A DNA stretch of 64,000 nucleotides, from the NCBI GenBank assembly GCA_965285935.1, contig OZ260666.1, forward strand, positions 4,898,001 through 4,962,000. The letters are read 5' to 3'. The translations under genes were made by a program, and so were the position numbers. Position 1 is the first letter of the stretch. Each line of letters opens with the position of its first letter. This stretch comes from Ophelia neglecta (taxonomy: Eukaryota). The notes under the pieces were generated by a model. That model searched no databases. It worked only from the letters and a program-made list of their open reading frames with translations, and had not been told where the DNA came from. Positions 1 to 54,395 of this stretch are shown here, one piece after another.

Positions 1-1580
1 CGTAGGATAATCTGGTCTTCTTCTTTCTCATGTAGCAGTTGATTTTTCAACAAAATTTTAAAGCACTGAGCAAAATACATACTGGGAGAACATTGTACAC
101 CATGCTGTTCTTTCCTAGGAATGGAAACACAAAATCGCTTTGGATATTGTAGGTTTTCTAAAGGCGATAAGTCCCATTTCACGAAATATTGTAATTCGTC
201 AAAAGTTCCAACTTGATTGTTCATGTAGAAGCTTCCAGTGCCTTCCAAGACATCACTAGGTCTAAACATTTCAGTTGACGTATGGGGAGCTTCATTGTGA
301 CCCTTCCCACTTTTCTGGACGACTCTATTATCCTCTTGGCAAATAGCAATGCAGCAATTGTGAAGCAGGTTTTCCACTTGTGTATGAATAGCGTGTACGT
401 CTGAGTTAAAACAGCCCGTGTATTCTCCGTCCAGACGCTCGGTACATTTTTTTATATGCGTTGCCTGTTCTATTGCCTTCATCCGAACAATGTACTGTTT
501 GTCTTTTGATTCGACGATTTTGGTCATTACATTCGCCACACGGTCAGGACAACATGTTGCTAAGCTCGCTAGCATTGTATCCTGTGGTCTATTGGCATTT
601 AACTTTCCCGACAATGCTTTTTCGAAGGTTGTTAGTTCATGATTGTCAACAACGTCCAACCTGTTGGATGACAAAGCTTTTTCTCTTTCAGGTCCCAAAA
701 AATGGACTTTAGGGCCCTTCTCAGCTAGAAAGTCTAAAATGTCAGTGTGTCTGTTCTCACATGCTATGTCCAAAGCAATTTGTCCGGTCTGGCATGGTTG
801 ATTTATATCGGATCCAAAATCGTACAAGACGCGTACAATATCTAAATGACCTGCTCCAGAAGCGAGATGTAAAGGGGTGAAACCATTCACCCCAGCAAGA
901 TTTACTTTAGCGCCTCTCTTGACAAGGAGTTCAACCACGTCTAAATGGCCCTTGGCGGAGGCTGCACAAAGAGGGCTGTTTCCACAGCTCAACGTGTTAA
1001 CCTTTGCTCTATGCTTACACAGATAATCTACGATTTTTGTGTAACCTTCCCTAGACGCCAATTGAATTGGGGTTAATCCTTCAGACCAAGCGAAATTCAC
1101 TTTTGCTCCTATTTTGACCAGATATTCTACAATATCCTTTTTTCCGTAGACAGCGGCGATCCCGAGAGGTGTGTACCCAAGCTCCTCTATTAGGTTTAAG
1201 TCAGTTTCTCTGTTCGATGCAATTTGTCTGACTTCATTGAAATTTCCGTTCAGAACAGCCTCGTGTATAGGACGGTTGCCTGATGTTTTCAATAATTTAA
1301 GATCATTTTCGCCTAGATCTATTGGAAGGCTCCCCTCTGCGCGTCCGTAAGTGACGTGTTTATTTTTAATGCTGTCTATACCTCCCTTACTACCTAATAA
1401 CGGGTCTGGTAGCTTGGTGGCGTCTTGATGTGGAACAAGAGACTGCGTTGGACAATTTGTATCTGTATCTTCTTGGTCGCCATTGTGTAGGGCCTCGCTC
1501 TCGATGTCAAGTAGTGGCCGACCCTCTTCTGATTTGCGGAAATTAGGTTGGTCTAATTCGTCATGCGCGATACCCTCCTC
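1..1580 (-). CDS. Gene A last exon: 6 ankyrin repeats fused in frame to a Mab-21/cGLR domain
   Basis: Hand translation is open from the acceptor at 1581-1582 to base 1: EEGIAHDELD...RPIHEAVLNG...TPLGIAAVYG...TPLHLASGAG...ALDIACENRH...VENLLHNCCIAICQED...VLEGTGSFYMNNQVGTFDELQYFVKW...EDQIILR. Not in the ORF track because no stop is reached. Confidence 0.9.
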
Positions 1581-4500
1581 CTAAGGAAATAGAAGTTTTG
1601 AGGTAAATATATCGTTTATGCTGTGTTTAAACAAAGTGTCAATAGAATGTAAATAATGGGCTTGCCCTTGATGTATATTGGAATTATTCTTAAACAAATA
1701 GGTAATTGTTCAACATATATTGTTTGTTGGGACTCTAACAACAAGAAACTGAACCTATATTTTAGAAATATTATACCTGAGAGACCGAAACATTCCAATT
1801 ATCTGTCTAATACTACTTGAAACTGTCTGCATTCACTCCCGGTATTCTCTACTTGTTAATAGAATGCAAAACATGGACTTACATCTGATTGAAAGGAACC
1901 AATACATAACTTATGTCAAGATAAGAAATGAATTACCTGGTCTGGCTTTATTCCTATTTCATTTCTTTGCATTTTAACGTAGCTGTAGACTACCACAGGT
2001 ACAATGGTATATCTAGAAACAGCAAAAGCGGCGGCGAGGAGGCAAAGCAACACGATTGCTGCGACGGCGATACCGACGATGGCTGTAGACGATCTGTTCT
2101 GGATTGCAACCTGGCCAGCTGCATGCAAAGGTTGTGTTGATTCTTCGGTAAACGGTTCCTTACCAGCGATCTGGGATATCGCTGTCGATAAGGCATCGAT
2201 ATTGGAAGTACTAAATGTGTTTGTGTAAGTGGTTTCTGTTGGAAGGATCCTGGTTGACATTTCATTCGGCACAGAACCTACTAAAATAGCTATATTAAAA
2301 CACACAATGCTAGAACAGCGATTATTTAATATATTAATATTCATTTTGACAAGACTATCATAATGGACATAAAAATAAACGGTTAATATCTTTGCCAGAA
2401 CAAGCATAGATTACAATGAATTGTAGGCATCTTTTTATCATCATGTTCATGTTATATGTGTAAATATCTTTGGAATAGTTCCGACGATGTTGTCCTAAAA
2501 ATAGACGACAACGCCTACTCAGGTTCATAGAATACACAATATACAAGAGCCAGCTTGTCAATAGCGTTAAATATGAATTCTAATTTCCGTAAGTCTACTA
2601 GTGGGCAAATATATAACTAGTGAACATTTATTGATTTTGAAGTTCGCGGCCACCCTTTGTTTGCGCGGCAGGGTAGTGTGGTCTGAAGTAATTGGTCGAT
2701 GGGAGCTTGCAAAATATTCAACGCTTATAGCAGCAAATTTCATTTCATCAATACATTGTTCTACCAATTTTGACATTGAAGTGTATTTATGATAAAGGTC
2801 ATTTTATAGTAGATTGAATAGATTCAGATTTCATTCATGACAAACAGGCTCTCTTTAACTAAATATTGTTATTTTAGGAGAAGTGTATTCGTATGTCTTT
2901 TGCACGATTTATTGTTTCATAATATGGCGGCTACATTATTACATAGATAAATGCATCATGAACCACAACAACAAGCTGTTTATAAATTGATAAAAAGCAA
3001 TGCATATGCATGCCTCGATTTCAATGTGATTTCTTTTATTTAGTTGGGCCTATTATGTTAGTCATAACATGAAACATCTCATCCTAACTGAAAACAAGTG
3101 CTGTCAATTATAATTCAGCAGCACAAACTGTATCTGAGTAAATCAAGTAAGCTGGTTTAAGATTAATTCAATAAGTATTGGCTTGTATTATGTCAATCAG
3201 CGTCATCAAATCTAATTCTAGAACTTGATGCTCAGTGCCACAGTGTGATTTGTGATCACCTTTTATCGAGCGAGACCACTGGTTGCATGGGGTTTAGCAA
3301 CTCATTGCCCCTGGAATCTTTTTGACACATTAAGCAAGGACGTGGCTCACTTTAGTGGAAAGCGTTTGTGTAATAATTTCCATGCGGTTAATCAGCTGTC
3401 CGGTTGTTTGATTTAGCTCGAAATGACAGTTGTAATTATGCCAGTAATATAAACAATTGATGGACATTTGAGTCAGAAAGAGTTTCGCAATCAAACTATT
3501 GTCCTATTATCAAAAGTTAAATATTTATTAACCCTACGATACCATTATTCAGATGTCATAAGAAGCATTCATGAAACGACAGTATAATTCAACAAGAATG
3601 AAAAGGTAACTGTCAACCAGTATACAAACCGCTGTAGTAAACTTGTAATGTGGTTGAGCTGGGCTCTAAAGCTATGAACGTTAGAGTTACTTCAACCTCT
3701 TGCTGTAGCACGTTACCAAAATGAAATTCTCCATCACACTCGTAATCGTGGTCTGAATGTCCAGTACAGGAATGCTGCTTCTCGCCTGTTGATAAAGTAC
3801 AATATACCGGAGGTTCGGCGGCAGGGATGGCTACAATCAATCGTAACATTCCTGGTTTTTTTAGCTCCAGCGTTTTGTTCCTTATAACAAATTTACGACT
3901 TGACTCGCCATACATCTGACTGTAGGAGATGGCTGGCTGCAGATATTTCTCCCGATCTGGGCACGCTGATAAAAAAAATCTGATCAACATTAATATTAAG
4001 TAAGAAATAACGTTTGCTTATAATACTTCTTGGAGGAATATAATCACTTTTTTTGCATTTTAATGATTTATAAATCTCTGAAAAAGCACATTGATCTATA
4101 TTATTCCTCGCTTAATACACGGCAGTCTAAGGTGCTCGTATACCGCGATACAAGGCATCAGATAATGCTCATTACATAAAATAATATAAAGGATTCAGGC
4201 TCTCCTGTTTGTTACTAATTAACATAGGTAAGTAATAGTATTAAATGAACACTAAGCACTAAAATGTGTATTAAACTTATACCATGCAGTTAAAATTGCA
4301 TTCATTTATAGCCATCTCGGTGAGTGAAACAAACAAACTTTAGCCATGTGTATATTGCGGCGTCGTTATATTTTGTTTTGCCTAAGTACATTTGCAGTAC
4401 TATGTTCAGGCGTTAAGCTATGACATACACAAGTATTAAGTCGACGAAATCACATTAAAACTCGATAAAATGCCAAAACCAAACCTATATTCACCTGAGG

Positions 4501-5362
4501 ATGTTAACACGCGTAATTCGGCAGAGTCGTGGATAAGTGTGACCAGTCCTTTAAGATAAACCTGTAATTCATAGGTACCACCGTCTGATGAAGATGCACT
4601 GTCTAATTTGATTCCGTAGGTACTGTTCTCAATCAGGTGGACGTTGTCAGTGCGTATTAGAGGCACTTTTTGTTTATCAATGCCAATAAGTAACTTCAAA
4701 TCTGGTTTAATCTTGTAAAAGTATACATAATCAACCTGATCCGGGTCGCCCTTGTAGCTCCAGAGCAGTCGGGCGGTGTCTCCTTCGCAGACGTGTACAG
4801 TTCCCGGACCCAGGAGCCATCCTGTAACAATATAAAGATAATTTGCGAGATTCGAACAAATTATGCGCTACTCCAACCCCGAACATCATGAATGCTTTGT
4901 AGTGCCGACCTTGATGTTACCTATTACAAATATTTTGCATGACATTCATTGAACCNNNNNNNNNNNNNNNNNNNNNNNNNNNNNNNNNNNNNNNNNNNNN
5001 NNNNNNNNNNNNNNNNNNNNNNNNNNNNNNNNNNNNNNNNNNNNNNNNNNNNNNNNNNNNNNNNNNNNNNNNNNNNNNNNNNNNNNNNNNNNNNNNNNNN
5101 NNNNNNNNNNNNNNNNNNNNNNNNNNNNNNNNNNNNNNNNNNNNNNNNNNNNNNNNNNNNNACGAAATTATTGCAGGGTGTTATGCTGAAGGTTTAATTC
5201 ATGATTTTAGTGCTTTAAGTGAGAGTAAATGTCGAAATGAAAAAGGAACCCAGCAAATTGTAACTTACCATCCTCTGTGTTACAGACTCCAGCATACTGT
5301 AAAAATAATACAGTGAGCAATACGATTTTGAAAAACAGCATCCCACTAGAATCACAGATCAT
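1..5362 (-). CDS. Gene A: type I membrane receptor, SP-IgV-like-beta domain-stalk-TM-6x ankyrin-Mab-21/cGAS-like domain (3' end beyond window)
   Basis: Exons 5362-5269 (MICDSSGMLFFKIVLLTVLFLQYAGVCNTED, signal peptide), 4821-4495 (Ig), 3965-3630, 2277-1937 (stalk+TM), 1580-<1. All GT-AG, phases 1,1,1,0; exons 1-4 are the same lengths as in gene B (94/327/336/341 nt). About 890 codons without a stop in the window. Confidence 0.88.
1937..2277 (-). CDS. Gene A exon 4, Ser/Thr-rich stalk and transmembrane helix
   Basis: AIVGIAVAAIVLLCLLAAAFAV hydrophobic stretch; acceptor TTTTAGTAG, donor CAG/GTAATT. Confidence 0.85.
4495..4821 (-). CDS. Gene A exon 2, V-like Ig domain without canonical disulfide
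   Basis: GDTARLLWSY...YGIKLDSASSSDGGTYELQV: DxGxY tyrosine corner present; phase-1 junctions. Confidence 0.85.
4956..5161. other. Assembly gap in gene A intron 1
   Basis: Run of N. Confidence 0.99.
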
Positions 5363-10722: not shown

Positions 10723-13409
10723 TGAAGATTAATTAAGTGTGCGAAGGTTTAGGTATGGTATTTAAAACTCGGAACGTTGCCAAAGGCCCGATCGACGTTA
10801 TATATAACACACAGATTTTGAAATACTTGTCTGACTTCCTTTACTAATAAAAGTGCATCTGTACACCAACGATATATTAGTAGATACGATGCATGTAAAA
10901 GCTGGCCAAAGTGTATCAGTATCAGCTCATACACAGTACAGTATATCTATTTTGCAGGTATTTAGCATATATTGTGTTTCTCAGAGATAATATCACCTCG
11001 TGAGAAACAAATCGGTCCCTCATAAGATACAAGACGGTACATATCGAGTTTATGGTATCAATACAAAATTTAAACTTTAACCCTGATTATTTGAGATTAA
11101 TCTATCCCTAAATTTTATTTTTGCCAACTGGTAAATTTCATGTTTCTTGCCCAGTATAGCATGCCGACTAATATGACAAAATCCTCTTCGCCACATCCAC
11201 CCCTTATCGACTGCCCCTCCTCTACAACTATGGTTAAATGACCGTCAATAATATGCGACAAACACTTAGACCAGTGACATTTATACCTTAATCTCACTGA
11301 ATGTGCTACCCTATAATTCTTAGGTTTCTTAGGCAATGAGCCTCTGATTAATTTTTTTGCTCAAATGTTTTCTGTTCTTAGGGAGGGGGGTGGGGGTTAT
11401 ATTATGATTTCATACTTGACAAACTTACTGATCGAGATATTTCAGCCCAAATGTAAATGTCCTCGGTCCCATAGGTTATCAGCCTTGCTATTATAGCCCA
11501 TACAAATATGTATGATATTCCGGCTACGAGATATCATTCCACGTCCATCGCCTAAAGGCTCAGGCCTTTATCACGTCTGTACGACTTATGTTTAGTAAAA
11601 AAGTTGAACTAAGTGAATTTTCGAAGCCAAATACGCAATAACCAAAGAAGTGGATATCAATGAAGACAATGTATTTTAATATCTGACGTCATGAGACAGC
11701 TGTCCAAATGCTACTGTGATTCGTTTGTCGGTTTCTGACAGGTTCGGAATTGTAATCAAGTGAAGATGGGGACAACCTTACTCTTCTATTGTGGAAATGC
11801 CCGGAAACGGCGTGCCACATGTTTTAGGGGAAGAACACACTTGTGTCATCTCAAAGTACTACAAATTCTTGCCAAGATACTAAGGAGTATTAAAATCTGT
11901 AATATTTAATTAAGTATTTAGATTATCAATTGTAGATTTCAAGAATTCCAATTTAAAAAAGGATAATTTACCGCAAGAAAATATCAACAGTTTGCGAATG
12001 AACTCGAAACCTCTCAGTAAAAAGTTGGTTTAGATACGGTTAAGCTGGTTAACATGGCAACCACTTACAACATTCAGTAAATAAATGTCTCATAGTCTCC
12101 ACTGTCATATAATCATAACTCCATCATATTTGAAGTATGCATGTCAGGTAATAGCTGATGGTGAAGCGCTTATGTCAATTTGTTAACCCTTGGTTACCAA
12201 GGCAACGGGCATCATAACCAAGCAAAGTTTTATTCATTTCTAGCAAAACCTACCTGGACTTTACATAAAAATTTTGTAACTTTTGGACAGTTTTCTATTT
12301 ATGACATCAAATGTGCACCATTGTTACAGCAGGTCACGTGATGGTTCACCTTAATTCTAGTCCTAAGGTTTCATGCAAAAACTAATGTGGATCATCTTAC
12401 ATAATCAACATTCTTGTGAAAACCCTTAGCACGCTTCCAGAACATTGGTATGTTGGTAAAAAGGCTAACCATTATCGTGAATGCCGTTCAAAGAAAATAT
12501 TTTGACACACTGAGGGACGGGCCTATGTCTGGTGAAATGGGATCAAGACACAAGAGCAGATGATGGTGGTCAAATTGACAGTTGAATGAATAAGTAACTC
12601 TGCCATATTATCACAACTAGAAGAATTACAAGTTTAAAACGCTCATACATTAAGTACTTGTAACGATGCTTAGTGCTTAAACCATTATATACTACTACCA
12701 TATTTCCTGCTCAGTTACTAGAGGTACTTCTGACAAATTTACAGCAGCTTGAACACTATAATTACATGTCTAGTTAGCACCTGTTTCGTGAAATCATTTT
12801 ACATCATTGTTTTCATTACGCTTCTTTTCAACAGCCGATTTGTACGCTATAATTAGCTTCGAAATAAAGTTGTATTGTCGTAAGAGTGCACCACACTCCG
12901 GCTCGGTGTTCTCTCTGTTATTAAGTAACTCGCTTCCAAATAAGGAACACCTACTCGAAGGAACAATTTCACTGAGCCTGTTTTTAACAACTGAGATTGT
13001 AAGGGGAAGGAGAACACGGGATTTTAGTCGAATCAATGCAGAACGTTCCCTCCGGTTTTTGGGCATAGTTCAGCAAAGCAAATATAAAGGCACGCGTTCA
13101 TCTTATTTGGTTATTTAGAAGCTTTCTGCCAATGAGAATGTTTCATTTTCAACAACATTAGTAACGCAATGTCCTCCCGGGGATATTTTCCCACGTATTG
13201 GGAATTGCATTGTTTCAACACTCATCCAAAGCTAAATAGGATGAGTAATAATTCACAGGCAGACTGGTCAATGTCTGCGTTATTCCCAGCACATTTCTCT
13301 ACCACGACTTTCTTTCTGGGAAGGCCGACTATTCTCTGCAGATATCCCATCGTAACAGCGAAGAACAGCAAAATCTTCGCTTCATCCGACAAAATCATAA
13401 AAAAGAGAA

Positions 13410-30137: not shown

Positions 30138-30139
30138 AT

Positions 30140-33100: not shown

Positions 33101-33480
33101 GCACTCGCATCCGGGATCACATCACAAAGGTGTTCTTCCAATTGCATTGGTTACCGATCAAACACCGAATACAGTTCAAAACGTGCCTGCTGACATTTAA
33201 GGCCATCCATTGACTAACGCCTGGATATATCTCAGACCTTATTGTGCCATATACACCCCAAAGGAATCTGCGCTCAGGTTCTAGTCCATCCCTTGTTGTT
33301 CCCAGGGCAAACACAAAGACATACGGCGAGCGTGGTTTCTCTTACGCCGCTCCCACCCTTTGGAACGCGCTACCATTACACGTCAGAAATAGTCGGAATG
33401 TGACTTCTTTTCAAACTGCCCTTAAAACTCACCTTTTTATCAGTGCATATGACCTCCATGTAGAATGACACTTATGATTA
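30140..33480 (+). mobile_element. Near full-length, degraded L2-clade LINE (endonuclease + reverse transcriptase)
   Basis: N-terminal YSREQL..RGLRAG leader; EN motifs AETWL, VYRPP, VGDFN, PTHIGGNTL; RT motifs [49 protein letters not shown]; C-terminal LHWLP..WNALP..LKTHLF. Several frameshifts and stops. Confidence 0.93.
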
Positions 33481-33699
33481 TAACTTATGATTATATATAG
33501 ACTATTTTATAATAGTATTCTTAAATTAATCTATAATGTTTTAAACCTTATGTTCATTTGTGTAACTTGCCAACCCCCCCCCCCCCCCACCCGTCCCACC
33601 ACCCACCCGCCCCCAGGACCATACCTACTTTACACCCATCGCTCAGATTCAAGCGTCGGTATGCAATCACTGAAAACCCACTTATTTGGTCGCATTTGA

Positions 33700-39600: not shown

Positions 39601-42600
39601 CACGAATATTGTTTCTATTTAACTGGTCAGTAACTTGTCTAAAGTGCAATAAATAGTCCAAGTCGTTCTGCTCAGTCGGGACATTACCCTTCCACATGCG
39701 AGTTGCGTAGTAAACGCCCTGACTGATAACATTCACTAAACCACTAGTCGTCAAATCACATCACAAGACAGTAGGACCATATGACAAATAAGATTTGATG
39801 ACGCTGATTGACATAATACAAGTCAAGACTTATTGAATTTATCTTAAACCAACTTCCATGATTTACTAAGATACAGCTAAATTGTGCTGCTGAATTAAAA
39901 ATTGACAGCACTTGTTTTCAGTTAGGATGAGCTGTTTCATGTTATGACTAACATAATAGGCCCAACTAAATAATAGAAATCACCTTGAAATCGAGGCATG
40001 CACATGCATTGCTTTTTATCAATTTATAAACTGCTTATTGGTGTATTTCATGATGCATTTATCTATGTAAAAATATAGCCGCCACATTATGCAGCAATAA
40101 ATCGTGCAAATGACATACGACTAGACTTCTCCTAAAATGACAATATTTAGTAAAAGATAGCCTGTTTGTCATCAATGAAATCTGAATCTCTTCAATCTAC
40201 TATAAAATTACTTTTATTATAAATACTCTTCAATGTAAAAATTGGTAAGAGAACAATGAATTGATGAAATGAAATGTGCTGCTGTGTTTAATATTTTGCA
40301 AGCTCCCATCGGCCAATTACTTCAGACCACACTACCTGCCGCGCAAACAAAGGGTGGCCGCGAACTTCAAAATCAAAGTTATAAATGTTCACTAGTTATA
40401 TATATTAGCCCACTAGTGGCTCACGGCAATAGGGAGAGGGATATTCTCGCAACTACTAACGTTTCGGAATTAAACTGGCTAGATGATTAGAATTCATATT
40501 AACGTTATTGACAACCTGGCTCTTGTGTATTGCGTCTTGTATGAACCTGTGTAGGCGATGTCGTCTATTTTTTAGGACATCATCGTCGGACCCTTTTCCA
40601 AAGATATTTACACCTATAAAAGGAACATCATGATAAAAAGATTCCTACAATTAATTGTAATATATGCGTGTTTTGTAAAAATAATTACCCGTTTATTTTT
40701 ATATCCATTTTAATCGTCTTGTCAAAATGAATATTTATATATTAAATGGTCGCTGTTCTAGCATTATGTGTTTTAATATAGCTATTTTGATAGGTTTTGT
40801 GCCGAATGAAATGTCAACCAAGATACTTCCAACGGAAAACAAAGTCAAAAACACATTTAGTACTTCCAAGATCGATGCTAAATCGACAGCGATAACCCAG
40901 ATAGCGGGTAAAGAACTGTTTACCGAAGGATCAACACAACATTTGCATGCGGCTGGTCAGGTTGCAATCCAGAACAGATCATCTACAGCCATAGTCGGTA
41001 TCGCCGTCACGGCAATCGTGTTGCTTTGTCTCCTCGCCATCGCTTTTGCTGTTTACAGATATACAATTGTACCTGTGGTAGTCTACAGCTACGTTAAAAC
41101 GCAAAGAAATGGACTAGGAATAAAGCCAGATCAGGTAATTCATTTCTTATGTTGACAAACGTTATGTATTGGTTACTTTAAATCAAGTGTAAGTAAATTG
41201 TCAGCATTCCATTGACAAGAGAATATCGGGAGTGAATGCAGACAGTTTTAAGTAGTATTTGACAGATCCTTGGAATGTTTCGGTCTCTCAGGTATTTTAT
41301 TTCAAAAGGATAGGTTCAGTTTCTTGCTGTTAGCGTCCCAACAGAACATAAAAACAAAATCATGTGTAAGTTAAATTTACGCGGCGCCAATCAATAGATA
41401 TTTAACAATTGCCTATTTGTTTAAGAATAATTCCAATATACATCAAGTGCAAGCCCATTACTTACATTCTATTGACACTTTGTTGAAACAATATATTTAC
41501 CTTTAAAACTTCATTTTCCTTAGGAAGTGGGTATCCCGCTTGATGTATTAGACCAACCTACTCTCCGCAAATCAGAAGACGGCCCAACACAGTCTCTTGC
41601 TCCACATCAAGACGCCACCCAGCTACCAGACCCGTTACTAGGTAGTAGGGGAGGTATAGACAGCATTCAAAATGAACACGTCAGTTACGGATGCGCAGAG
41701 GGGAGCCTACCAATAGACCTAGGCGAAAAGAATGTTGAAATATTGCAAATATCAGGAAAACGTCCTATACACGAGGCTGTTCTGAACGGAAATTTGAATG
41801 AAGTCAGACACATTGTATCGAACAAAGAAATTGACTTAAACCAACCAGAGGAGCTTGGGTACACACCTCTCGGGATCGCCGCTGTCCACGGACGAAAGGA
41901 TATTGTAGAATATCTGGTCAAAGTTGGAGCAAAAGTGAATTACGCTTGGTCTGAAGGATTAACCCCAATACAATTGGCGTCCAGGGCAGGTTACACAAAA
42001 GTCGTAGCTCATCTTTGTAAACACGGAGCAAATGTTAACAAGTTGAGCTGTGGGAACAGCCCTCTTTGTGCAGCCTCCTCCAAGGGCCATTTAGACGTGG
42101 TTGAACTCCTTGTCAAGAAAGGCGCTAAAGTAAATCTTGCTGGAGTGAATGGTTTCACCCCTTTACATCTCGCTACTGGAGCAGGTCATTTAGATGTTGC
42201 ACGCGTCTTGTGCAATTTTGGAGCAGATATAAATCAACCATGCCAAACCGGACAAACTGCTTTGGACATAGCATGTGAGAACAGACACACTGACATTTTA
42301 GACTTTCTAGCTGAGAAGGGCCCTAAATCCATTTTAGGTCTGCAAGAGAAAAACATTGTCATCTAACAGGTTGGACGATGTTGAAAATCATGAAGCACCA
42401 ACAACCTTCAAAAAAGCATTGATGGGAAAGTTAAATGCCAATACACCCCAGGATACCATGCTAGCGAGCTTAACAACTTGTTGTCCTGACCGCGAGTCGA
42501 ATGTAAAATTCAAAACAATCAAAATCGATTAATTAAAAGACAAACAGTACGTAGTTACCATGAAGGCATTAGAACAGGCAACGCATATAAAAGCATGTAC

Positions 42601-43030
42601 TGACCGTCTGGACGATGAAGGCACGGGTTGTTTTAACTCAGACGTACACGCTTTTCATACACAAGTTGAAAAGCTGCTCCACAATTGCTGCATTGCAATT
42701 TGCCAAGATGTTAATAGAGTCGTCCAGAAAGGTGGGAAACGAGACAATGAAGCTGCCCCTGCTTCAGCTGAAGCGTTTAGACGTGGCGATATCTTGGAGA
42801 GCACTGGACGCTTCTACATGAACAATAAAGTTGGAACGTTTGACGAATTACAATATTTCGTGAAATGGGAGTTATCTTCTTCGGAAAACCAACAATATCC
42901 ATAGCCAATTTGTGTTTCCATACCTAGGATAAAACAACATGGTCTACAATGTTCTCCAAGTATGTATCTTTGAAACTTTGTTGAAAAATCAACTGCTGCA
43001 TGAAAAAAAAAGACCAAATTATGCTACGAT
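33700..43030. repeat. Right arm of inverted segmental duplication (left arm ~1-9900)
   Basis: Reverse-complement matches: 9260-9900 vs 33700-34440; 7570-8248 vs 34442-35050; 2300-3220 vs 39790-40790; all A/B exons; base 1 aligns to ~43029. Confidence 0.9.
37607..42366 (+). CDS. Gene B: paralog of gene A, open as SP-Ig-beta domain-stalk-TM-6x ankyrin (646 aa), truncated before the Mab-21 domain
   Basis: Exons 37607-37700, 38540-38866, 39074-39409, 40794-41134, 41524-42366 (TAA). Same junctions as gene A; a frameshift at ~42328-42355 relative to A leads to the stop. Confidence 0.8.
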
Positions 43031-44052
43031 GTGATCCAAATACACAAGGCCCGGGATTATGTGTGGGACTCTCATGGGTCTGTCCCTCAGAGCATACACA
43101 TGACCTCCGACTTAGTATAACACCCGTCGTTGTGTGGAAAGACAAACTGATGTCTGAAGTATGTCAAATTCCCGATGCCATGAAAAAGGCCCCATTTGAG
43201 TCCATTATGGATGACTTTATCAAAATGCGAGTTGTATTAATACCAGACCCCAATATTGATATAACTGTCGAAGAAGAATACATCACCTCGTCCTGGAAAG
43301 TGTCATTTGATGACACAGAACGTCTAATATTTAGATGCTTAGACGATATTTCATCAAATATCAGGACATGTTTCCACCTTCTGCAATTGCTCAACAACTT
43401 TCTACCCACGAGAATAACTCGTTCTGAAGAGCATGACGTTTGGAAATGCCACCCGGTGATATCGTCCTACGTGCTGTACAATACACTGCTTCAGGTGTGG
43501 ATTAAACATCCAACCAAGGCTGAATGGGATGACCATAATTTTCCCGACCGACTGGTCAGTTGCCTTGATTCTCTCAGCAAATTTACCTATCAAGACTTTC
43601 TCTCGGAGAAGACAGAGCCGTCTATACAGATTTCCCACCTCAACCATATACAACAGCAAACTCTAAACGGCATACTTGGCTCTGACCTGAAGGAGATCCT
43701 CAACATACTGCACCAAAAGGGAACGCGTATGACGAGAAAGGACTCCATCACCCAGACGCTTGGCAAAACAAACAAAGCCATACAAAGACGTTCTTTAGGA
43801 AGGGCATCAGTATACGCCAAATATGACGTCATCTGTGTGCTTAGCTTGAATGCAGCAGACGGTGTGCATTACACCGTGCATTCTGGCTGGAAGGAAGTAT
43901 ATGCATCTGGGCATCTTAAGAAGAAAACCTATGTAGGAATTACAGATGGCTCTTATTGCTACAGGATTCCTGCACCAAACGTCTCTTGTAGAAAGTTTCA
44001 CCTGTATGAAAATATGTATGATTTCATTTTGAAAAAGTTTGAAACAAGTTAA
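42328..44052 (+). pseudogene. Disrupted Mab-21/cGAS-like region of gene B
   Basis: Versus gene A: frameshift ~42328-42355, TAA 42530-42532 (GAA in A), TAG 42902-42904 (AAG in A), 11-nt deletion ~42966, A-run indel ~43003-43011. Mab-21 motifs are clear: TGRFYMNNKVGTFDELQYF, GPGLCV, LRLSITPVV, WKVSFDDTERLIF, RTCFHLLQLL, ISSYVLYNTLL, HPTKAEWDDHNFPDRLVSCLDSL. Confidence 0.8.
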
Positions 44053-45140
44053 GGGACCCCACGGGAAAAGTATTAGTTTGCAGAAAGCTATACCTCCTAA
44101 TCATTCATATGAAAATCATATCGCAGATAATTTTCTCTCAATGTGTTGCTGTTCATTATCTAGAAGTGCTCCTGACAAATCTACTGCAGCTTGAACACCT
44201 GCTTGAAGAGTCAGTCTCAATGAGAATGGAGTTGACAGTAAGCTTTATCTAACCCGTGAGATCGGGTGTGAAGCAGAACACAGGACTCGACGAATCGATG
44301 CACAAAGTACTTGTAAGGAGGACGTTTTTAAGCAACCCTTTGCATTAGCTCAGACCGCCACAAGTGATAAATAATTAATGAAGAATAATCAACCTCGATC
44401 AGGTAGGTGCTTCTAGATGACACCGCTGATCTACTCTGAGGAATCCTTGCTGATATTCCATCAACTCTAATATAAAGACTAGTGTTAATACATGTATATA
44501 TTTGAGTTATTCTGAAGCTTTCTGTTAATGAGAATACTTCGTTATCAACATTGTTGTGCTGACATCCATCCATGTGTATATGGCATATATCCGTAATGCT
44601 GTGTTTATGCTCGCTTAATATCTTCCATGCATTCAATGACATTTTATATTTATTGCGCGGATTGCCGCGGCACATAACGGTTTGATTGCTGCTTTTACGA
44701 ACTATAGGTGCATACAAACAAAACTGGCACAAATAAAAAAGAATGTGTCTACTTATCAACCAACTACATATTTGTGTAAGATATTTTACGAATTACGATC
44801 TAGCTATGTAAATTCTGTGTATTTCATTCAATGAAAGGCATTTTCGCCTGGTCAATTGTGTTTTTCTATATGGATTTATTCATTTTGTCATTATTGTTAA
44901 CGCTTTCCTTACTATAAACTTATATTCAACAACAATCCTATACCATGTGTATATAATTAATCAATTGACTATTGAATGAATATTAATTAATTGCATGGAT
45001 TCTTATTTCGTCATATACTAGTCTCTCGCTCTTGGTTATTTTTCTTAGAATCAAATAGTTGAGAATTAATCTTGTAACTATTATTATTAAAATTATCATA
45101 GTTTTAATACATATGATACCAATTTTAGCTATTGAAATGA

Positions 45141-45146
45141 AATAAA
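45141..45146 (+). terminator. Candidate polyadenylation signal for gene B
   Basis: AATAAA ending an AT-rich stretch ~1.1 kb after the 44052 stop; other AATAAA hexamers occur nearby. Confidence 0.3.
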
Positions 45147-47021: not shown

Positions 47022-48129
47022 CATTAAGGTGGACCTTGTGGCATCTTCACCAATTTACGGCCCGGTCAAATTTAGATGCCATTGGCATGTTGCTATACAT
47101 ATATGTGACCATATTAACTGTAAAGTGTCCCTGTCACCGTCCTTGTCCTTTATTAAAGATGTGGTAGGAGCAGATCAGCTTTCTCCCTCTCACACCGCTT
47201 GGCCCCACCCTCTGAGGTCTAAAGATCGCCCCCAAATATACCCCAAGACCAAATAATTAGCTGTTGTATACTGCAACCAGCAGATACTTTTATAAGGTAA
47301 GGTACAGATTGAGAATAAAATGAAATTCTTCCCGGAAAAATGCCAAAATAAAAGGATGTGTTCAACATGAACTTTCAGCCTATGGATTCCCTCAGCTTTA
47401 TTTAATGACCCTGGTTACCAATTTATGTATTGTCTCTTGCACTTTTACCGCCGATTGAAACGGTGTTTTAGAAGTGAAAACAAACACTGCAAAATAAAGG
47501 TTGGAGAAGAATTTATTTGCATAAAATTACAAGCAGTAATTGTAGGCGGACAAAGACATGAATAAATAAGAGTTGTTTTATTGTCAGTTCACAGTATATT
47601 GTTTACTTGAACCACAGAACACGATACACGTCGTAATACAAAATGGCTGACAAAACTCCTCTAAGGGCGATAATTGGCGATACCTGACGAAAGGTGACAG
47701 TTCAGTTTGAAAATTATACAAATTTGTCTTATAAACTCGAAGCTTTAAATAGGCAAAGACTATTGTCATTCTATGTTATACATGTTTCGCCAATGAAATA
47801 AACAATTTAAGATAAACTTACAGCTCTGGGGCTATATAAAAACCCATGAAACGTCCGCAACACAAAAACATGTAACATGGCTTCCTCCTGACTACAATGT
47901 CGCACGCTCGCTTACCGACGCAGTGCCTATTCACCAAACAAAAAAAATCCGTGCGCCTCGGCCGAGGTGCTTACATCGAAATGCGCTAAGAAAAAATTAA
48001 CCCATGAAACTACTTACAGAATGATTAAGAAATGTGTTATTACTCCGAAACCCGAACAATAAATAAGTAGTTTGAAATGGCATATCTACTAAATACGGAA
48101 AATATGACGGTCTGTGGGCTACAGTTACA

Positions 48130-48713
48130 AATAAACAGGAACCAGCTGTAGTTGGCACGTTAGTGCAAACTGATGGCGCAACGTGTCTGTTTCAAAACAT
48201 ACATTTATATGTATTTGTGTTAAGGGTGCATTAGTATCGGTTCAGATAAAAATAATGCTAATCATACCTAGACCAATGTATGTCCAGTACATAAAATTGG
48301 ATAAAAGCGTTAGGTTGGTGTTATGAAATGGCTGCCATTGTAGCTTATATTATTATCAATGCTGCCAAGCCCCCTCTTTATGGTATGAAAACGTGTCTAG
48401 TAACACAATCAATACCAAATTGAATATAGTATTTCTCCCAATGTAATAAAAATATACATACACGAGAATCCATATCTGGTTTAGAATGGATCCCCAATGA
48501 GAGTCTATCATGATAATTACAAGATATACTGTGTCGGCGGCAATTTGTATTAAAACACTGTTACTTCAGGCTTTTCCCTTCAATGAGAGGCAAATAGGAA
48601 AGGTACCATTGCTTACCCAAAACAAATAATGTCTGGTTTGCAGTATAGTTCGTATGGCGACAGTAGAAGTTACCGGCGTCATTTAATGTGTCACTAATCT
48701 TCAGGACAGATTC
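48130..48713 (-). pseudogene. Remnant of a third C/D-family paralog
   Basis: 48713-48617 encodes ..VLKISDTLNDAGNFYCRHTNYTANQTLFVL followed by a GTAAGC donor, matching the 3' end of the gene D Ig exon. 48130-48460 resembles gene D intron sequence 52897-53290. Confidence 0.75.
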
Positions 48714-51697
48714 ATATGAGTGATATAGTAGTGGAGTTTAGAGGTGTAAAAAATCTAAAGGAATTGAGAAGTTAATATAAATTAGGAGCGGTTTTGGAGA
48801 ATATTAGGAGAGTAATTGGGCTGTGATTTCAGCAGGGTTACGGGATTTTAGAAGGTTGTTTGAGGGGTAACCTTTGAAGGGCCCATTCTCCAGTGCACAA
48901 TCTCATCTTTCCTCATCAACCCTCTGCCGCCAGCACTCTCTTGGCCTTGAGACAGAAAGAAGACTATTCCAAAGTAAGTCTATCAATGCAGACGATCTGA
49001 AATCAGTCCTTGTTATATTTGAACCGACCTCATTTCAGGCCCTCAGCTTCACCCACTATTCTTCACACCATGAGAAGACACCAGTCTCCCGGATACTGTA
49101 GGTCAATTCATTGCATTCCTACACTTATTCAGACCAGCTTCCTTTGGTTGGTGTGAGAAAAAAAATGTGGGGGTAGAAATATGCCTGAAGCGTATTTATT
49201 AGTAAAAATATTCAGTTATATTACTTGCATGGTATCATTTTACGCATTAGTACTAAATACGCCATTTAAAAGCCTATGGTATAGGATAGAGTGCAAGACT
49301 TTATGATATACATAGCATTTTTATATTACAGTGCAAAATATATGCCAGATATAGATACTTTTAAAATTTAGTCGGACTCATTTAGAAAAATTAAATCAAT
49401 TCCCAACTCTAATACAATGTATTTGTCTTCTGCACAATTAAATCAACGAAGATGCAGCATAAGGCAATTTGTTAAGTTGCTTAATATAATTAACTTGCAT
49501 TATTATTAGGTGCAAATGCAAATATACTATAACTGAATTAATCTTCGTTCAAATTAAAATTTACTTAAGATTAATATTATGTCAATAAGCCGATAGTTGG
49601 CGATAATTGGCAATAAACCACGTGTTATCATTAAATCAAATAGATATGCTCATTATTAGTGAAATCATGCTTATGGCATTAATATAATACAAGTGTTTTA
49701 GGAGAATCCTTCACTATACATGCTTATATCTACAGCGCTATTTATAGCCACACAAAAGCTATTTATGCAATCCCACTGGCATCACATTTGCTTAATTATT
49801 GTCCAATCATCATACAAAATAAATTCGATATCGTACTTCCAACTCTTATTTCAAGTCCAATCCACTTTCGAATGATTATTTCAAACTACATCCATCAATA
49901 TCACCTCCCCCCTTTTATATTATTTATCTTTTTTCCGTGTGCTAATTGCTATCGTGGTTCAACTACAAAAATTTCAAATTTCCTATCCGACTCAATAAGG
50001 AGTTGGCTGGTCTTTCGTATGCCGTCAGCATAACTCACTCGCGTGCGTCAATGCGTCTGGTCTCCTGGTCGAGCCACGTCGAGTCACATTCCCCAGTGGA
50101 TACCGGAGGAAATAAATCGGGTTTTTATATAATGAGTCATTAAAAGCAATTAACATTGCCCAAACGATTGAAACTCTCCTTCATATTGCTGTCAAATCCA
50201 ATGACCCCCACATTTGTATAATACTTCAGAAAATTGAACAAAGAAAAAAGTCAACATAAATTAATGAAACATGTGGAAGAAATTATGCTTGCCGTTATTT
50301 ATATTATTTTAGTGGAAAGATACTCCCTCTAGTCTTGTCCCCGCCCACTGTTTGGGTAATTATAGAAAAAAAAATCAAATTATACTGTTTAAGCACGAGT
50401 GTGGCTGTTTTTTTGTTGTTTTTTTTTATTAAAAAAAATATTTTCAGAAGATTAATCGTTTACTCTGCTTCATACGCCTATTGACACTAGAGGGAAAAAT
50501 CAGGATGTTGTATCGTGATTCATTAAATAAAACATATGATTGCCGCACCCTATTAACATTTACTTCACTACTTCTCATTGCCACTGATATCAAGTTATGG
50601 TAAGCTGTTGGTTACTACGCCATAACTAACCTAACAACAATGTTTGTCATCAGCTATTTCGATACGCTTCAGGTCGCAGATTTTTCCCGATTGCCTTCAG
50701 AATGCTATAATTTGTGTATGATCTTGACCTTACCATGTGTATAGTTATTGCCAGTTGTAGGTAGAGGAGGTCTGAATAAGTGAGCAAAAAAGTCGTTTTT
50801 TCATGTTTTTGGAAAATTCTGCCACATCGTCACAGAAGTAGCTATCGGCTTTTGCTTAACTTGAAAATGTTCGCGACGGCAGGATGCAGATTTTTGTTGC
50901 TAAGCGGCACATTCTCATCGCGATAAATTAACAGCTATGGTAGCTGCCAAATCGCGATAAAGCATCGTACACGAAATGTGCCGGCGGCATTCTGATGGCG
51001 ATCGAAAGCATGTGTCCGCAAAAATGAACCATTAAGTCCTCCGACGATTCGTTTTCAAGATACAGCCCAAATGTCGTTTCAAACCTCGTAGATTTAAAGG
51101 CTTATTTCTCCGGAAACGGAAGTTACAGCGTAAGCTCTGTTGAAGTCAGTCTTGGGACTAGAGTCGATATTCGGAATTTTGATCGTTAGCCAGGATATCA
51201 GGGAATCCTCTCCCTTCAAGTTAAACAACTTATGCACCCTAGGATTGCAAGGCATTACACGCAAGACCGTACATGTCTTTGTTAAACGGTAGTTCAGGCA
51301 ATTTTAAACGCCGCATAAACGGGCTTTTGACGCTACTACAAAACTTTTTGCGATAAGCAGTTTTAGTTTTTTCACCGTTGGTAACCGCCAACCACTGAGT
51401 ATCAGGGATGAAGTCGGAGGAGACGCCCGGCCGACAATGCGAAATTTATTGTAATAACATCCATAAATCTAGTCTATGTGGACCTGTGACTGCTGTTCAC
51501 TGATATTTCAAGCCGATTTAATGTAGTATTATTGATTAATGGTTTTGCTGTTTATGTCGGATATGCACGTAGGTTTGGGTAGTTTGGTTTTCGGAATGTA
51601 TCACGGCATAAGCTGAATATAGAAGTGCGAGAAGTTTTATTTCTGAATAAACGATTAGATTCATTATACAGACGAGTTTGCTCTGTCTGTAACGTTG

Positions 51698-54395
51698 CTA
51701 CTCCCACTTTTTATTAGATAAACCTCTACCTCTCGAGTGCCCATAGTGCATTCCGGCGTTCCCACCTGTGCTTGGTGGGATGTCAGGTAAGGGTATCGGC
51801 AATTCTTCGTAGCTATGACAGCTGATTCTGTCTGGTCCAAGGAAACCTGCAAAGGTGAGATTAGTGATTGTATCAGAAAAATATATGGTGTAATATATAT
51901 AGTTTTGTAGAATCTGAAAGAGTCCAATGCATGCTTGAACTCACGCCGATTTTAAAGATGTTAGAAACACTGCGGTATAATTGGCTCTGCCTTCACTTTT
52001 GTAGGGTAGCTCTTTGGCCAGCATTACTACCATTATCAGTCCAGCCTACGGTACTTTAATAACGTTTTAACGATAATGATAATCATAATGAGAATTGGTT
52101 AAAGTTCTTCCATATTTCCCCAATTGACATGTTACCCCCGGAATTGTCAAGTTACACTTTCCCTATAATTATTAAATCACTTTGGGCAAAACGCTGAACT
52201 GACGGCCATGGCTTGTATACACTTTGTATACTGACCGCCAGAGCTTGTATACAAATTGTACCCCCCAGGCCTTGTATACACATTGTATACTGACCGCCAG
52301 GGCTTGTATACAAATGGTACCGCCAGGGCTTTATACATATAGTAACCTGACCGCCAGGGCTGGTATACACATTGTATTAAAAAATAATTCTCTACTACTC
52401 AAATTGACTACTTAATCTTAAAGACCTGTGCTTGACATATAAGTGAGTCTTATATATATGTCCAATGTTGGCTGGATGGTATCCAGTCATTTATTGCTGC
52501 GTACTGTTGTGTGATGGGTTGCGTCTTACTATTCTAGCATTTGTGTAAACAAAGTTATCATGCTAGTCCACTGGTCGTTATAAACGCAATACAACTGTAC
52601 AGTTAATCTGAAATGTTACCTCGATGGCACCGTATAATGAACAGCAATACTGGGAGTATCACTCCAATAGCTACTGAGATGGTCACTGTAAACATTAACT
52701 GGTACGGATTCTCGGGTGGCAGCCAAACGTCACCTTTAACGATAATGTCACTCACTCAGATTCAAAGAGTTCAGTTTTGAAATCAATTGACAATCTAAAA
52801 TGTAACAATTGAATAAAAAGTGCTAAGATATCTTTTTCTTGGAATCGCTGTTTTATTCTCACATGCACATCCGTTGAAGGAAAGGAACAGTCGGCATAAA
52901 TAAACAGGAACCAACTCCAGTTGGCACGCCCGTGCCTCCTGATGTCTGTTTCAATACATACCTCTATAGGCCTTTGCGTTAAGGTTGAGGGGAAATCAAC
53001 ATTTGCGTCTTGGTATCGCTTAAGGTGGACATAATGCTAATCATACCTAAACCAATCTTTGTCCAGTACAAACTTGGATGAATGGGTTGGGTTTGAATTA
53101 TAGAATGACTGAAATTATATATATTATATTGTTATCAATGCTGCTCTCGTCACTACTTTTGATTTCGCCGTTTACACAAAACACCCAATCTTGTATGAAG
53201 AAACGTGTAGGTTTCTCTAGACACACAATCAACAAAAAATTGAATATAGTATAGCTCCCAATGAAATAAAATAATAAAAGGCAGACATACACAGAAAACG
53301 GTGACGGTTTAGAGAATAACCATAATAATAGTGCTATATGAAAGTTATAAAATATAATGCCTAACTGTTTTTTTATATATTAAATACGTTCTCACTTGGA
53401 TCTGACTCTAATGCAGAGCCATCTTCCCGTCCATCTTCTGGTAGAGAGGTAGATGTGACGTTACAGGTCATTAGATGCCCGTTTGAAGTGATGAAACCGG
53501 GAGATGGCTTTCCTGAAAAGATAAAGGTCAATAAACAAGAACTAATGTTGGTCTGAGTACTTCCATTTGTATGAACTATATTCCATTCACTTTGGCGTGT
53601 TTTGGTAAAGGTTACTTACATGGGGTATGTAACAGTGCTAATAGATATATATGTTTACGAAATATTTGTATTAAAAACACCGTTACTTTATGCTCTTGCA
53701 CTGAGCCACAATGAGAAGCAAATTTGAAAGGTACCACGGCTTACCACAGACGAATAATGTATGGCTTTCCGCATAGTTCGTTTTGCGACAGTAGAAGTTA
53801 CCGGCGTCATTAAATGTGACGTTAAACAAGGTCAACTTCAGGACAGGTCCATCCGCTTCATTGTCGACTGTCGCCTTCATGGCGGTTTTCTTCCTTATTA
53901 GCACAGTGCTGGCAAATATGTTGAATATGTTCTGTTTTCTATTGTTGTAGCATTTGGTAGGTTCTATGCCGTGCCCGGTTGGTAGCTTCCAGGACAGGGT
54001 GACATTGTCGCCTGTGTACACTCGGGTGACATTATCTGTGGAAATGTTTCTTTTACTTATCTAATCATATTATTTATTTTCTGTGGTTATTGAAAATGTT
54101 CATATCTTTAAGAGAGCACTTCTCTTAAGTTAGAATAAAATTTCACGTTCGTTTGAGAAAACAACTGTGTGATATTGCTTATATAAGCAGAGATATTCAA
54201 ATTCATACACGAATATCCTACGTGTCCATGTGATCTGGTTTAATAAAATACTCTCAATTTCTGCGTAAAACATCGATAGTTATATGTCTATGAGGACCAT
54301 ATTACCGATATATCATATAGTTACTTACCTAAACTTGCCAGTGCACCAAACATTTGACACACGCCGAACACCGCGACGATATATATCGGCTTCAT
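51698..54395 (-). CDS. Gene D: paralog of gene C with internally deleted second Ig exon
   Basis: Exons 54395-54329 (MKPIYIVAVFGVCQMFGALASL), 54035-53745 (DNVTLSWKL..TKCYN..NDAGNFYC), 53512-53396, 52733-52620 (TM; 114 nt as in C), 51846 to either the donor at 51766 or TAG at 51698 (HSYEELPIPLPDIPPST, cf. HDYEDIQPPLLELPPST in C). 3' end uncertain. Confidence 0.75.
52199..52377. repeat. Degenerate ~26-32 bp tandem repeat (~6 units) in a gene D intron
   Basis: CCGCCAGGGCTTGTATACA...TGTA(TACTGA) recurs. Confidence 0.85.

Follow-up and report, generated by a model that had tools for sequence, protein, structure and literature searches.

Ig/TM receptors with predicted ankyrin-cGLR tails beside tyrosine-tailed receptors in a locus of Ophelia neglecta

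Receptors of the cGAS-like type (cGLRs) are known for sensing nucleic acids in the cytosol. Ankyrin-fused cGLRs, in which the ankyrins (ANK) lie N-terminal to the Mab-21/cGLR fold, show lineage-specific expansions in invertebrates (PMC9980059, drawn on here, like the other papers cited, in excerpt). The cGLR active-site motif is given as h[QT]GS X8-20 [DE]h[DE]h X50-90 h[DE]h (PMC9980059), and the catalytic acids are required in cGAS (PMC4897736; PMC4117786). In a different setting, the Alr receptors of Hydractinia are clustered single-pass proteins with atypical V-set domains and one exon per domain, accompanied by pseudogenes, divergent tails, and ITAM/ITIM motifs (PMC9546547).

Here, we analyzed a 64,000-nucleotide stretch of O. 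neglecta contig OZ260666.1 (the window; all coordinates refer to it) that shares these features of Alr. Two of its genes, A and B, have the module order of the ankyrin-fused cGLRs and likewise represent a lineage-specific expansion; unlike in those proteins, the ANK-cGLR module has a broken active-site motif and is predicted to form the tail, inside the cell, of a protein with signal peptide, Ig domain, and TM segment. Alr receptors have an Fn3-like extracellular spacer, and the excerpt of PMC9546547 used here mentions no ANK-cGLR tail. The exon in the spacer position of the present locus encodes a jelly-roll-like sandwich in the A/B models and a short Ig-like domain in gene C, with one exon per domain.

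Two receptor families in a decaying cluster

Exon modeling on the DNA yielded four genes, A(-), C(-), B(+), and D(-), with AG/GT at every exon junction and phase 1 for all ectodomain exons. A preliminary description of this DNA had proposed a cluster of two Ig-TM families with different tails; the four models, with their canonical splice sites and phases, agree with the former point, and domain and motif reading agrees with the latter (ANK plus Mab-21 in A/B, tyrosine tails in C/D). Its statement that all host genes are Ig-TM receptors holds in that no further host gene was found in the window by Pfam searches of 120 leftover open reading frames (ORFs) of at least 65 aa, a screen that smaller exons could escape; the second ectodomain exon of A/B, however, has no Pfam match, and the best matches of its model are jelly-rolls. 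The 120 ORFs remained after 57 of the 177 N-free ORFs of at least 65 aa were removed for overlap with known exons, LINEs, or satellite; their two Pfam matches were both to the proline-rich PRIMA1 model, far under the cut-off. Rfam and tRNA scans of the window returned no match each.

Gene C (15747..23798, minus strand) is modeled with 8 exons joined by phase 1 introns (23798-23735, 23189-22887, 22300-22064, 18821-18708, 17692-17597, 17088-16987, 16440-16309, and 15856-15747) and encodes 385 aa: a signal, a V-set Ig domain, a short Ig-like domain, a TM segment, and a 147-aa tail with 7 Tyr and one ITIM consensus, the latter at chance level (P 0.26). Gene D (51536..54395, minus strand; 248 aa) has 6 modeled exons (54395-54329, 54035-53745, 53512-53396, 52733-52620, 51846-51766, and 51612-51536) encoding a signal, a V-set Ig domain, a second domain, a TM segment, and a 55-aa tail with an ITAM. 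The second domain of D has an in-frame loss of 40 codons, a correction to the preliminary description. When exon 2 of C/D was compared with the PDB, 266 sequences matched at E values up to 10, and the best 60 of the 266 were Ig-domain proteins (best E 3e-10, summed over repeats); the Pfam ig match (E 0.0017) is under the cut-off.

All three Tyr residues of the D tail are in YxxPhi motifs (shuffle P 0.004), and the tail fits the ITAM pattern Yxx[I/L]x6-9Yxx[L/I] (shuffle P 0.006); these values come from 20 motif tests and are uncorrected. The ITAM depends on the model of the last exon, which is backed by DNA similarity to C, and an acidic Y-E-E/D-hydrophobic motif is common to both tails. In C/D, a V domain that lacks the canonical disulfide is combined with a second Ig-like domain and tyrosine tails. 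This is a likeness in mode of action to the CD2/SLAM family and to paired ITAM/ITIM receptors such as CEACAM (PMC5112662, PMC2832619). The ligand-binding regions of paired receptors are similar, whereas the V domains of C and D share no more than about 40% identity (39-40%), so that neither is an ITIM- or ITAM-bearing partner of the other with a near-identical ectodomain. A and B show the reverse of the paired arrangement, homogeneous tails under differing ectodomains.

Several decayed pieces were located by DNA similarity. The preliminary list had lacked two Mab-21 fragments on the plus strand, one with stops at 12704..13380 (63% DNA identity to the B coding sequence) and one directly 3' of the B stop at 44146..44575, the latter being nearer to the 12.7-kb fragment than to the B coding sequence. 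A D-like remnant (48125..48718, minus strand) comprises the 3' end of a V exon and intron sequence. Weak Mab-21 profile matches at 63554-63952 (E about 5) were rejected. The duplicates, truncations, and remnants reported earlier are thus present, including the broken gene B and the D-like remnant, and birth-and-death turnover is borne out by four genes, one of them partly broken, and three remnants, i.e., divergent paralogues together with pseudogenes and remnants. As read from the DNA, the locus holds two unrelated families of predicted single-pass surface receptors, both with fast turnover. Neither the C/D family nor the clustered and decaying arrangement is unusual among Ig receptor loci of invertebrates.

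It had also been proposed that cytoplasmic modules were swapped between the families, that is, that a single ancestral Ig receptor family exchanged tails by exon shuffling. In favor of that scenario are the interleaving of the families and the phase 1 V-set exons present in each, but phase 1 Ig exons are the rule in IgSF genes anyway. A/B and C/D have only a generic Ig F-strand motif in common (blastp E 0.009-1.7), with no ectodomain or TM homology beyond it (by hhalign, the probability is 12% in the V comparison, 4% in TM, and 0.1% in the second domain); the families differ in their second domain, and tails attach in phase 0 in A/B and in phase 1 in C/D. We consider the swap hardly credible.

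Ectodomain and tail exon of genes A and B

The predicted order in A and B is signal peptide, V-set Ig domain, beta-sandwich, stalk, and TM, followed by a phase 0 exon with ankyrins and the Mab-21/cGLR domain. Exon 1 (A, 5269..5362, minus strand, ending in phase 1; B, 37607..37700, plus strand) encodes the predicted signal peptide; it is a splice-model call, and in A it gives a hydrophobic N-terminus. Exon 2 (A, 4495..4821; B, 38540..38866; 55% identity) encodes a putative V-set Ig domain similar to CD2 domain 1 that lacks both canonical cysteines, their positions being judged by eye. The Pfam V-set match (E 2e-4) is under the cut-off, and 8 of 9 PDB matches are Ig proteins, JAML and CD2 included, at weak E values of 0.03-0.7. 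Exon 3 (A, 3630..3965; B, 39074..39409; 63% identity) is modeled as an 8-stranded beta-sandwich with 4 Cys (pLDDT 70, built on 2 sequences). Its best structural matches are jelly-rolls, with the ColG collagen-binding domain first (Z 9.0, barely over the usual background of 7-8; rmsd 3.0; 92 residues aligned). Among the matches listed, no Ig-fold entry was recognizable by title, though the exon may still have an Ig fold; a word-index homologue search with the exon 3 alignment found 0 of 733 candidates, which is weak evidence. Exon 4 (A, 1937..2277; B, 40794..41134; 84% identity) encodes a stalk and a TM helix and ends in phase 0; in A, the stalk is Ser/Thr-rich, the TM helix has a hydropathy of 3.0, and juxtamembrane tyrosines are present. 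We did not treat as signals the ITIM-like juxtamembrane strings, of which A has two (P 0.02) and B has one (P 0.38).

Exon 5 of A (1..1580, minus strand) stays open for 526 codons up to the window edge and encodes a linker, about six ankyrin repeats, and the N-half of the Mab-21/cGLR domain with an E-x-Q motif, assigned by Pfam and by a profile of relatives; the third catalytic position and the 3' end are beyond the edge. Exon 5 of B (41524..44052, plus strand; 2529 bp) encodes a linker, ankyrins, a Mab-21 domain, and a C-terminal extension. Both ankyrin regions match Pfam Ank_2 (E 1e-36 to 1e-40), and Mab-21_C in B scores 28.6 bits, above the curated cut-off of 24.1. Within 42328-43010, the B exon is damaged by frameshifts at three sites and by a pair of nonsense codons; the first stop, at 42364, would leave a 646-aa ankyrin-only receptor, and the frame is open again at 43012-44049. 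The single intronless exon of about 2.5 kb in the preliminary description therefore stands as to its phase 0 intron and its length in B, but the exon is whole in neither gene, because A ends at the window edge and B is broken.

The intron between TM and ankyrins is 356 bp in A and 389 bp in B, with donor and acceptor conserved in both. The first Met of the A tail exon is residue 336, whereas the ankyrins start at 101, and the 280-codon frame of B has none; the tail exon therefore requires an upstream exon. Unspliced read-through of the TM exon would meet a stop about 8 codons beyond the donor. We infer from the DNA that the TM exon is spliced to the ANK-Mab-21 exon. If the latter instead belonged to another transcript, A and B would be short-tailed receptors, and the lack of a visible ectodomain in the closest relatives would be accounted for. 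That alternative is quite improbable given the missing start codon ahead of the ankyrins, the shortness of the intron with both splice sites kept in A and B, and the fact that the in-frame stop is the TAG of the acceptor itself.

An upstream block (33595..35036) with an inverted copy at 7622-10031 (about 88% identity) marks an inverted A/B duplication. Synonymous divergence (dS) falls from 0.88 in the V exon to 0.46 in the sandwich, 0.21 in TM, and 0.09 in ANK, and is 0.24 in the Mab-21 N-half; noncoding divergence is 0.09-0.12 in the 3' introns and 0.13 in the upstream block, and there is a sharp step within intron 3. Ectodomain divergence was taken from the per-region dN/dS analysis, the 5' half of the global DNA alignment being unreliable. 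By these comparisons, A versus B is a mosaic of old ectodomains and young tails. Pairwise dN/dS over seven A/B regions and C/D ranged from 0.42 to 0.90, with no point estimate above 1 and no sign of positive selection in any region of this one genome window; in the tail, the values (ANK, 0.80 [0.44-1.74]; Mab-21 N-half, 0.55 [0.29-1.03]) are not clearly below 1.

Relatives, origin and active site of the cGLR domain

A profile of B and nine relatives matched cGLR1, a cGAS-like receptor structure, in the PDB (E 4e-10); all 38 matches were cGAS, cGLR, or MAB21L1, with MAB21L1 the weakest. The A N-half by itself had no PDB match and the B C-half by itself only weak cGAS matches (E 0.23-0.66), and the two jointly span positions 6-393 of a 24-relative profile. 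A single-sequence fold of A exon 5 (pLDDT 36) and an end-to-end alignment of the A half with the B half, which is meaningless, were discarded.

Relatives numbered 25 (23 from an exhaustive search and 2 from a follow-up), and none has an Ig domain. A word-index search with the B C-half among proteins of 607-2000 aa gave 0 of 1819 candidates, again weak evidence. In a tree of 23 of the 25 (P0015 and P0016 were dropped as short matches), the Mab-21 domain of B groups, with 96/88 support, with ANK-Mab-21 proteins that have neither Ig nor TM. Together with the absence of Ig from all 25, this upholds the earlier suggestion that an ANK-cGLR module was captured. A hydrophobic N-terminal stretch was present in 1 of 23 relatives checked (P0020). 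The relatives look, judging from their ends, like single-ORF calls; therefore, upstream ectodomain exons could be hidden. The ankyrins of A are 25-34% identical to those of seven matched relatives, a generic level, and the ANK/Mab-21 spacer of about 180 aa in the closest relatives is absent from A/B; hence, ANK and Mab-21 need not have come jointly. The spacer has what we take to be a SOCS-box-like look, and Pfam gave no SOCS match in 7 relatives at E values up to 10.

Capture of a retrocopy, i.e., of a spliced ANK-cGLR mRNA, had also been suggested. Such an origin would explain 2.5 kb without an intron, and several close relatives stop, by eye, about where the C-terminal extension of B begins, which could mark an intron lost in B. 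On the other hand, no A-run of 8 or more occurs in the 1.45 kb 3' of the B stop (such a poly-A remnant could have vanished from an old copy), the Mab-21 pieces were duplicated with flanking DNA, and relatives of 880-1370 aa resemble single long ORFs, so the long exon may be ancestral. A retrocopy thus seems distinctly unlikely.

The preliminary description had missed that the active site is degenerate. The second catalytic acid is Gln in both A and B and acidic in all 19 relatives that cover the position (6 of the 25 do not). The third is Ser in B and Asp in 19 of 22 relatives (16 by pattern and 3 more read off alignments), the others having N, N, and K. Gly-Ser and the first acid are kept in A, and B has GR. 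Both genes fail the cGLR motif of PMC9980059 at the second acid, and B also fails it at the third and at GS. The domain accordingly looks catalytically dead in both copies.

Alternatively, A could be an active receptor cGLR, in which an outside ligand triggers synthesis of a cyclic dinucleotide inside the cell for STING. Its Gly-Ser, first acid, and open frame would be compatible with activity, the shrimp proteins discussed below have a full active site in the rows viewed (PMC9980059), and reduced activity is left possible with Gln at the third position (PMC4897736). However, the Gln lies at the second position, where every relative covering it is acidic, B has in addition lost the third acid, and an E-to-Q/D-to-N double change at the first two acids abolishes the activity of porcine cGAS (PMC4897736). 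We regard an active A as very unlikely.

Proposed function and comparison with known systems

The best overall explanation, to which we assign a probability of about 0.5, is that Ig/TM receptors with a dead ANK-cGLR scaffold (A/B) lie beside phosphotyrosine receptors (C/D). A gene for a V-set domain, a beta-sandwich, and TM would have acquired, through a phase 0 intron, the long exon from an ankyrin-cGLR gene, and the catalytic acids would have been lost ahead of the A/B duplication. The ectodomain may bind an outside ligand, e.g., on a microbial or cell surface, whereupon the receptor would cluster and its ankyrins and dead cGLR fold would act as a scaffold recruiting cytoplasmic partners, the fold perhaps binding nucleotides, like MAB21L1 and MiD51, instead of making cyclic dinucleotides. 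A-type copies may swap ectodomain cassettes, or tails may be homogenized, so that ligand specificity could vary over a common tail; B, as an ankyrin-only truncation, may be a decoy or a dying copy. C/D would signal by phosphotyrosine docking, for which D would use its activating ITAM and C perhaps an ITIM. We infer the ligand and scaffold role of A/B, as well as an immune or allorecognition function of the locus.

The same architecture might serve nonimmune recognition (adhesion, neuronal wiring, or gamete and larval settlement cues), with a Mab-21 part like the developmental MAB21L. V-set/TM receptors and Mab-21 proteins do have developmental roles (for MAB21L1, see PMC4897736 and PMC10732462), and dN/dS nowhere exceeds 1. 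Nevertheless, the remnants, truncation, and ectodomain mosaicism, the ITAM in D, and the closest kinship being to ANK-cGLRs whose sites are intact, with MAB21L1 the last of the PDB matches, make nonimmune recognition unlikely.

MiD51 is a membrane-anchored protein. MAB21L1 and MiD51 combine the NTase fold and an altered triad with nucleotide or partner binding, a parallel to A/B in working; unlike A/B, they have no ectodomain and no ankyrins and belong to another subfamily (PMC4897736). In the full-text literature searched, in which few subscription journals are covered, we found no description of a signal-peptide/Ig/TM receptor ending in ankyrins and a cGLR. Likewise, no Ig entry was found in the portion of Table S2 of PMC9980059 used, in which a positive control worked, and in that of Table S1, four A/B-subfamily motifs had no match and two others matched unrelated rows only.

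The same tables contain FN3-ANK-cGLR proteins of penaeid shrimp (XP_027209269.1, XP_037775312.1, XP_037775314.1, XP_042884081.1, and XP_042881989.1), which the excerpted main text of PMC9980059 does not mention. Their order is FN3 repeats, a gap of at least about 200 aa, ankyrins, and cGLR (PMC9980059), and the start of XP_027209269.1 resembles a signal peptide by eye. They probably share the plan of an outside part, a presumed TM, ANK, and cGLR. FN3 takes the place of the V-set domain and sandwich, and the active site, unlike that of A/B, is intact in the three rows viewed out of the five (PMC9980059). These entries are a partial precedent for A/B. Possibly, though this is doubtful, animals have repeatedly built "receptor cGLRs" in which an extracellular ligand controls an ankyrin-cGLR module, with FN3 and an intact enzyme in shrimp and with V-set/sandwich and a pseudo-enzyme here; the dead or truncated A and B would scaffold or restrain active ones, within a single immune complex that also includes ITAM/ITIM receptors. 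If so, cGAS-like signaling would reach beyond nucleic acids in the cytosol to ligands outside the cell. A protein that runs, as predicted, from a signal peptide through Ig and TM to ankyrins and a cGLR fold would locate the module at the cell surface, and an apparently dead cGLR tail under an antibody-like ectodomain hints at a little-noticed link from outside recognition to innate immune signaling. Together, A/B and the shrimp proteins make both the control of cGLR domains by outside ligands and the role of dead cGLR domains testable.

The Receptor Gene Cluster

Gene models were built from six-frame translation, self-comparison, and direct reading of the window DNA. The preliminary description had proposed a cluster of Ig/TM receptor genes, which is real, though misread in part: four models (A, B, C, and D) have AG/GT at all junctions. 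Genes A (5362 to the window edge, minus strand) and B (37607 to 44052, plus strand) have five exons each, in phases 1, 1, 1, and 0, while C (23798 to 15747, minus strand; 385 amino acids [aa]) has eight exons and D (54395 to 51536, minus strand; 248 aa) six, all in phase 1. The window also has a D-like remnant at 48125 to 48718. Decayed Mab-21 pieces at 12704 to 13380 and, in tandem directly after the B stop, at 44146 to 44575 are two copies of a third lineage, which may be a relic of a tandem double-cGLR (cGAS-like receptor) or of a third A-type gene.

Among 177 N-free open reading frames (ORFs) of at least 65 aa in the window, 120 lie outside known features and gave no matches except two sub-threshold proline-rich ones. 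Decayed remains of a non-LTR retrotransposon, matching endonuclease and reverse transcriptase, lie at 30500 to 33500 (plus strand); next to them, in inverted orientation, is a 3' piece of an element related to it (29640 to 30152, minus strand). A satellite with a 41-bp unit, repeated about 54 times with 95% matches, occupies 57261 to 59443. Intron 1 of A contains a 206-N gap (4956 to 5161). A perfect 53-bp inverted repeat on both sides of an N gap in a C intron (16635 to 16687 and 16848 to 16900) is probably an assembly artefact; two C introns also carry a direct repeat of about 100 bp (87%; 17194 to 17295 and 22560 to 22671), and short minisatellites occur in the tail introns of D (52198 to 52377) and C (16211 to 16320).

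The Predicted Ankyrin/Mab-21 Tail of A and B

We put the probability that A and B encode surface receptors with an ankyrin and Mab-21 tail at about 0.85. Exon 2 is V-set-like without the canonical cysteines (Pfam E value, 2e-4), with weak JAML/CD2 matches. Exon 3 had no match in a Pfam search; its model (two sequences, pLDDT 70) is an eight-stranded sandwich that best matches jelly rolls of the collagen-binding/PPC, SID1, and GOLD types; the top match (Z 9.0, rmsd 3.0, 92 aligned) is only slightly above background. Exon 4 encodes the stalk and TM. By eye, exon 5 encodes some six ankyrin repeats, where Pfam Ank_3 marks five stretches in A and six in B; it also encodes a Mab-21 domain, with a Mab-21_C score above the Pfam cut-off in B. 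Because the intron between exons 4 and 5 is short and conserved, no Met precedes the ankyrins, and the acceptor TAG closes the upstream frame, the TM exon is predicted to be spliced to exon 5.

With a profile that included nine relatives, 38 of 38 structure matches of the Mab-21 domain were cGLR1, cGAS, and MAB21L1, and its sequence suggests a cGLR fold and origin. According to the motif descriptions in PMC9980059 and PMC4117786, a cGLR requires Gly-Ser and three acids, and the A/B domain lacks this membership motif. The second acid is Gln in A and B and Asp or Glu in 19 of the 19 relatives covering the position (coverage is lacking in the other 6 of 25), and the third is Ser in B and Asp in 19 of 22 relatives; the third position of A lies beyond the window. 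Since intact A also has Gln, the active-site loss predates the decay of B. The domain is probably catalytically dead and would more likely act by binding, as described for MAB21L1 and MiD51 (PMC4897736).

All lesions of B fall within about 680 bp (42328 to 43010); the frame is open for 634 codons at the 5' end and for 346 at the 3' end (43012 to 44049). Such confinement has a rough, post hoc probability of 0.025 and points to a tract that was converted, or to selection still acting on the 3' part. The first stop lies in the last exon, so that under the nonsense-decay rule B could yield a 646-aa receptor with ankyrins only.

As to the origin of the tail, an exhaustive search found 23 relatives and a follow-up 2 more; Pfam placed ankyrins in 7 of these 25 and an Ig domain in none. 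Hydropathy analysis of 23 showed hydrophobic N-terminal stretches in one relative (P0020) and a weak C-terminal one in another (P0001). A tree of 23 of the 25 relatives (all but P0015 and P0016) placed the B domain in a 96/88 set with four ankyrin proteins and two fragments. Three points weigh against a simple form of the cGLR gene capture initially proposed: A and B lack the spacer of about 180 aa between the ankyrins and Mab-21 of the closest relatives (P0001, P0003, P0024, and P0025), their ankyrins show generic similarity only, and the relatives could be ORF calls confined to one exon, with further exons missed upstream. We take the spacer to have a SOCS-box-like pattern, for which Pfam gave no support. 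That the tail exon is a retrocopy is an unsupported, less likely alternative: the 1.45 kb past the B stop has no poly-A (no A-run of 8 or more), and the Mab-21 pieces were duplicated at the DNA level.

Possible Exchange within A/B and the C/D Tails

The proposed swap of tails between the two families by exon shuffling is not supported: A/B and C/D have only an Ig F-strand motif in common, their second domains differ, and their tails join in different phases. The exchange signal is instead within A/B. Synonymous divergence between A and B is 0.88 in V, 0.46 in the sandwich, 0.21 in TM, 0.09 in the ankyrins, and 0.24 in Mab-21; divergence is 0.09 to 0.12 in the 3' introns and 0.13 in an upstream block, with an abrupt step at about 3217/39787 within intron 3. 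Two readings fit: a distant paralogue supplied the cassette of ectodomain exons, or homogenisation acted on both flanks. The dN/dS ratio is 0.42 to 0.90 throughout; these comparisons (all <1) show no positive selection, nor do they clearly show purifying selection on the tail.

C and D are Ig/TM receptors about 30% identical. By the motif definitions in PMC9546547, all three D-tail tyrosines are YxxPhi (P = 0.004) and two form an ITAM (P = 0.006; both against shuffles, uncorrected), while the single ITIM of the C tail is at chance level (P = 0.26). Both tails have an acidic tyrosine followed by prolines. C and D may work like ITAM/ITIM receptors and are too divergent for a classical pair. The D exon 5 donor (51766) is weak; by eye, an in-phase alternative 36 nt downstream (51730) would add one tyrosine.

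Comparison with Known Systems

The notable element of the cluster is the probable surface receptor with an ankyrin and pseudo-cGLR tail. We lean toward an immune role for the cluster, and the full mechanism proposed stands at even odds. The likeness of the locus to the Hydractinia Alr complex is confined to layout. In our full-text literature search, no paper turned up that describes an Ig-TM-ANK-Mab-21 receptor. Ankyrin-cGLR fusions are already known (PMC9980059); the domain table of that study has no Ig entry (a positive control was run) and contains five proteins that combine FN3 repeats with ankyrins, which its main text does not mention. In the three examined, all from Penaeus, the cGLR site is intact, and one of them begins with a signal-like sequence (Tables S1/S2). 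Its tables also include coral cGLRs with hydrophobic N termini by eye (XP_027057476.1 and XP_022807539.1) and, from Mytilus, a Mab-21-LRR-TIR model (CAG2202247.1). Linkage of cGLRs to membranes may be more frequent than has been described. An outside-TM-ANK-cGLR plan seems to recur unremarked in animals, with A/B as a variant of it.
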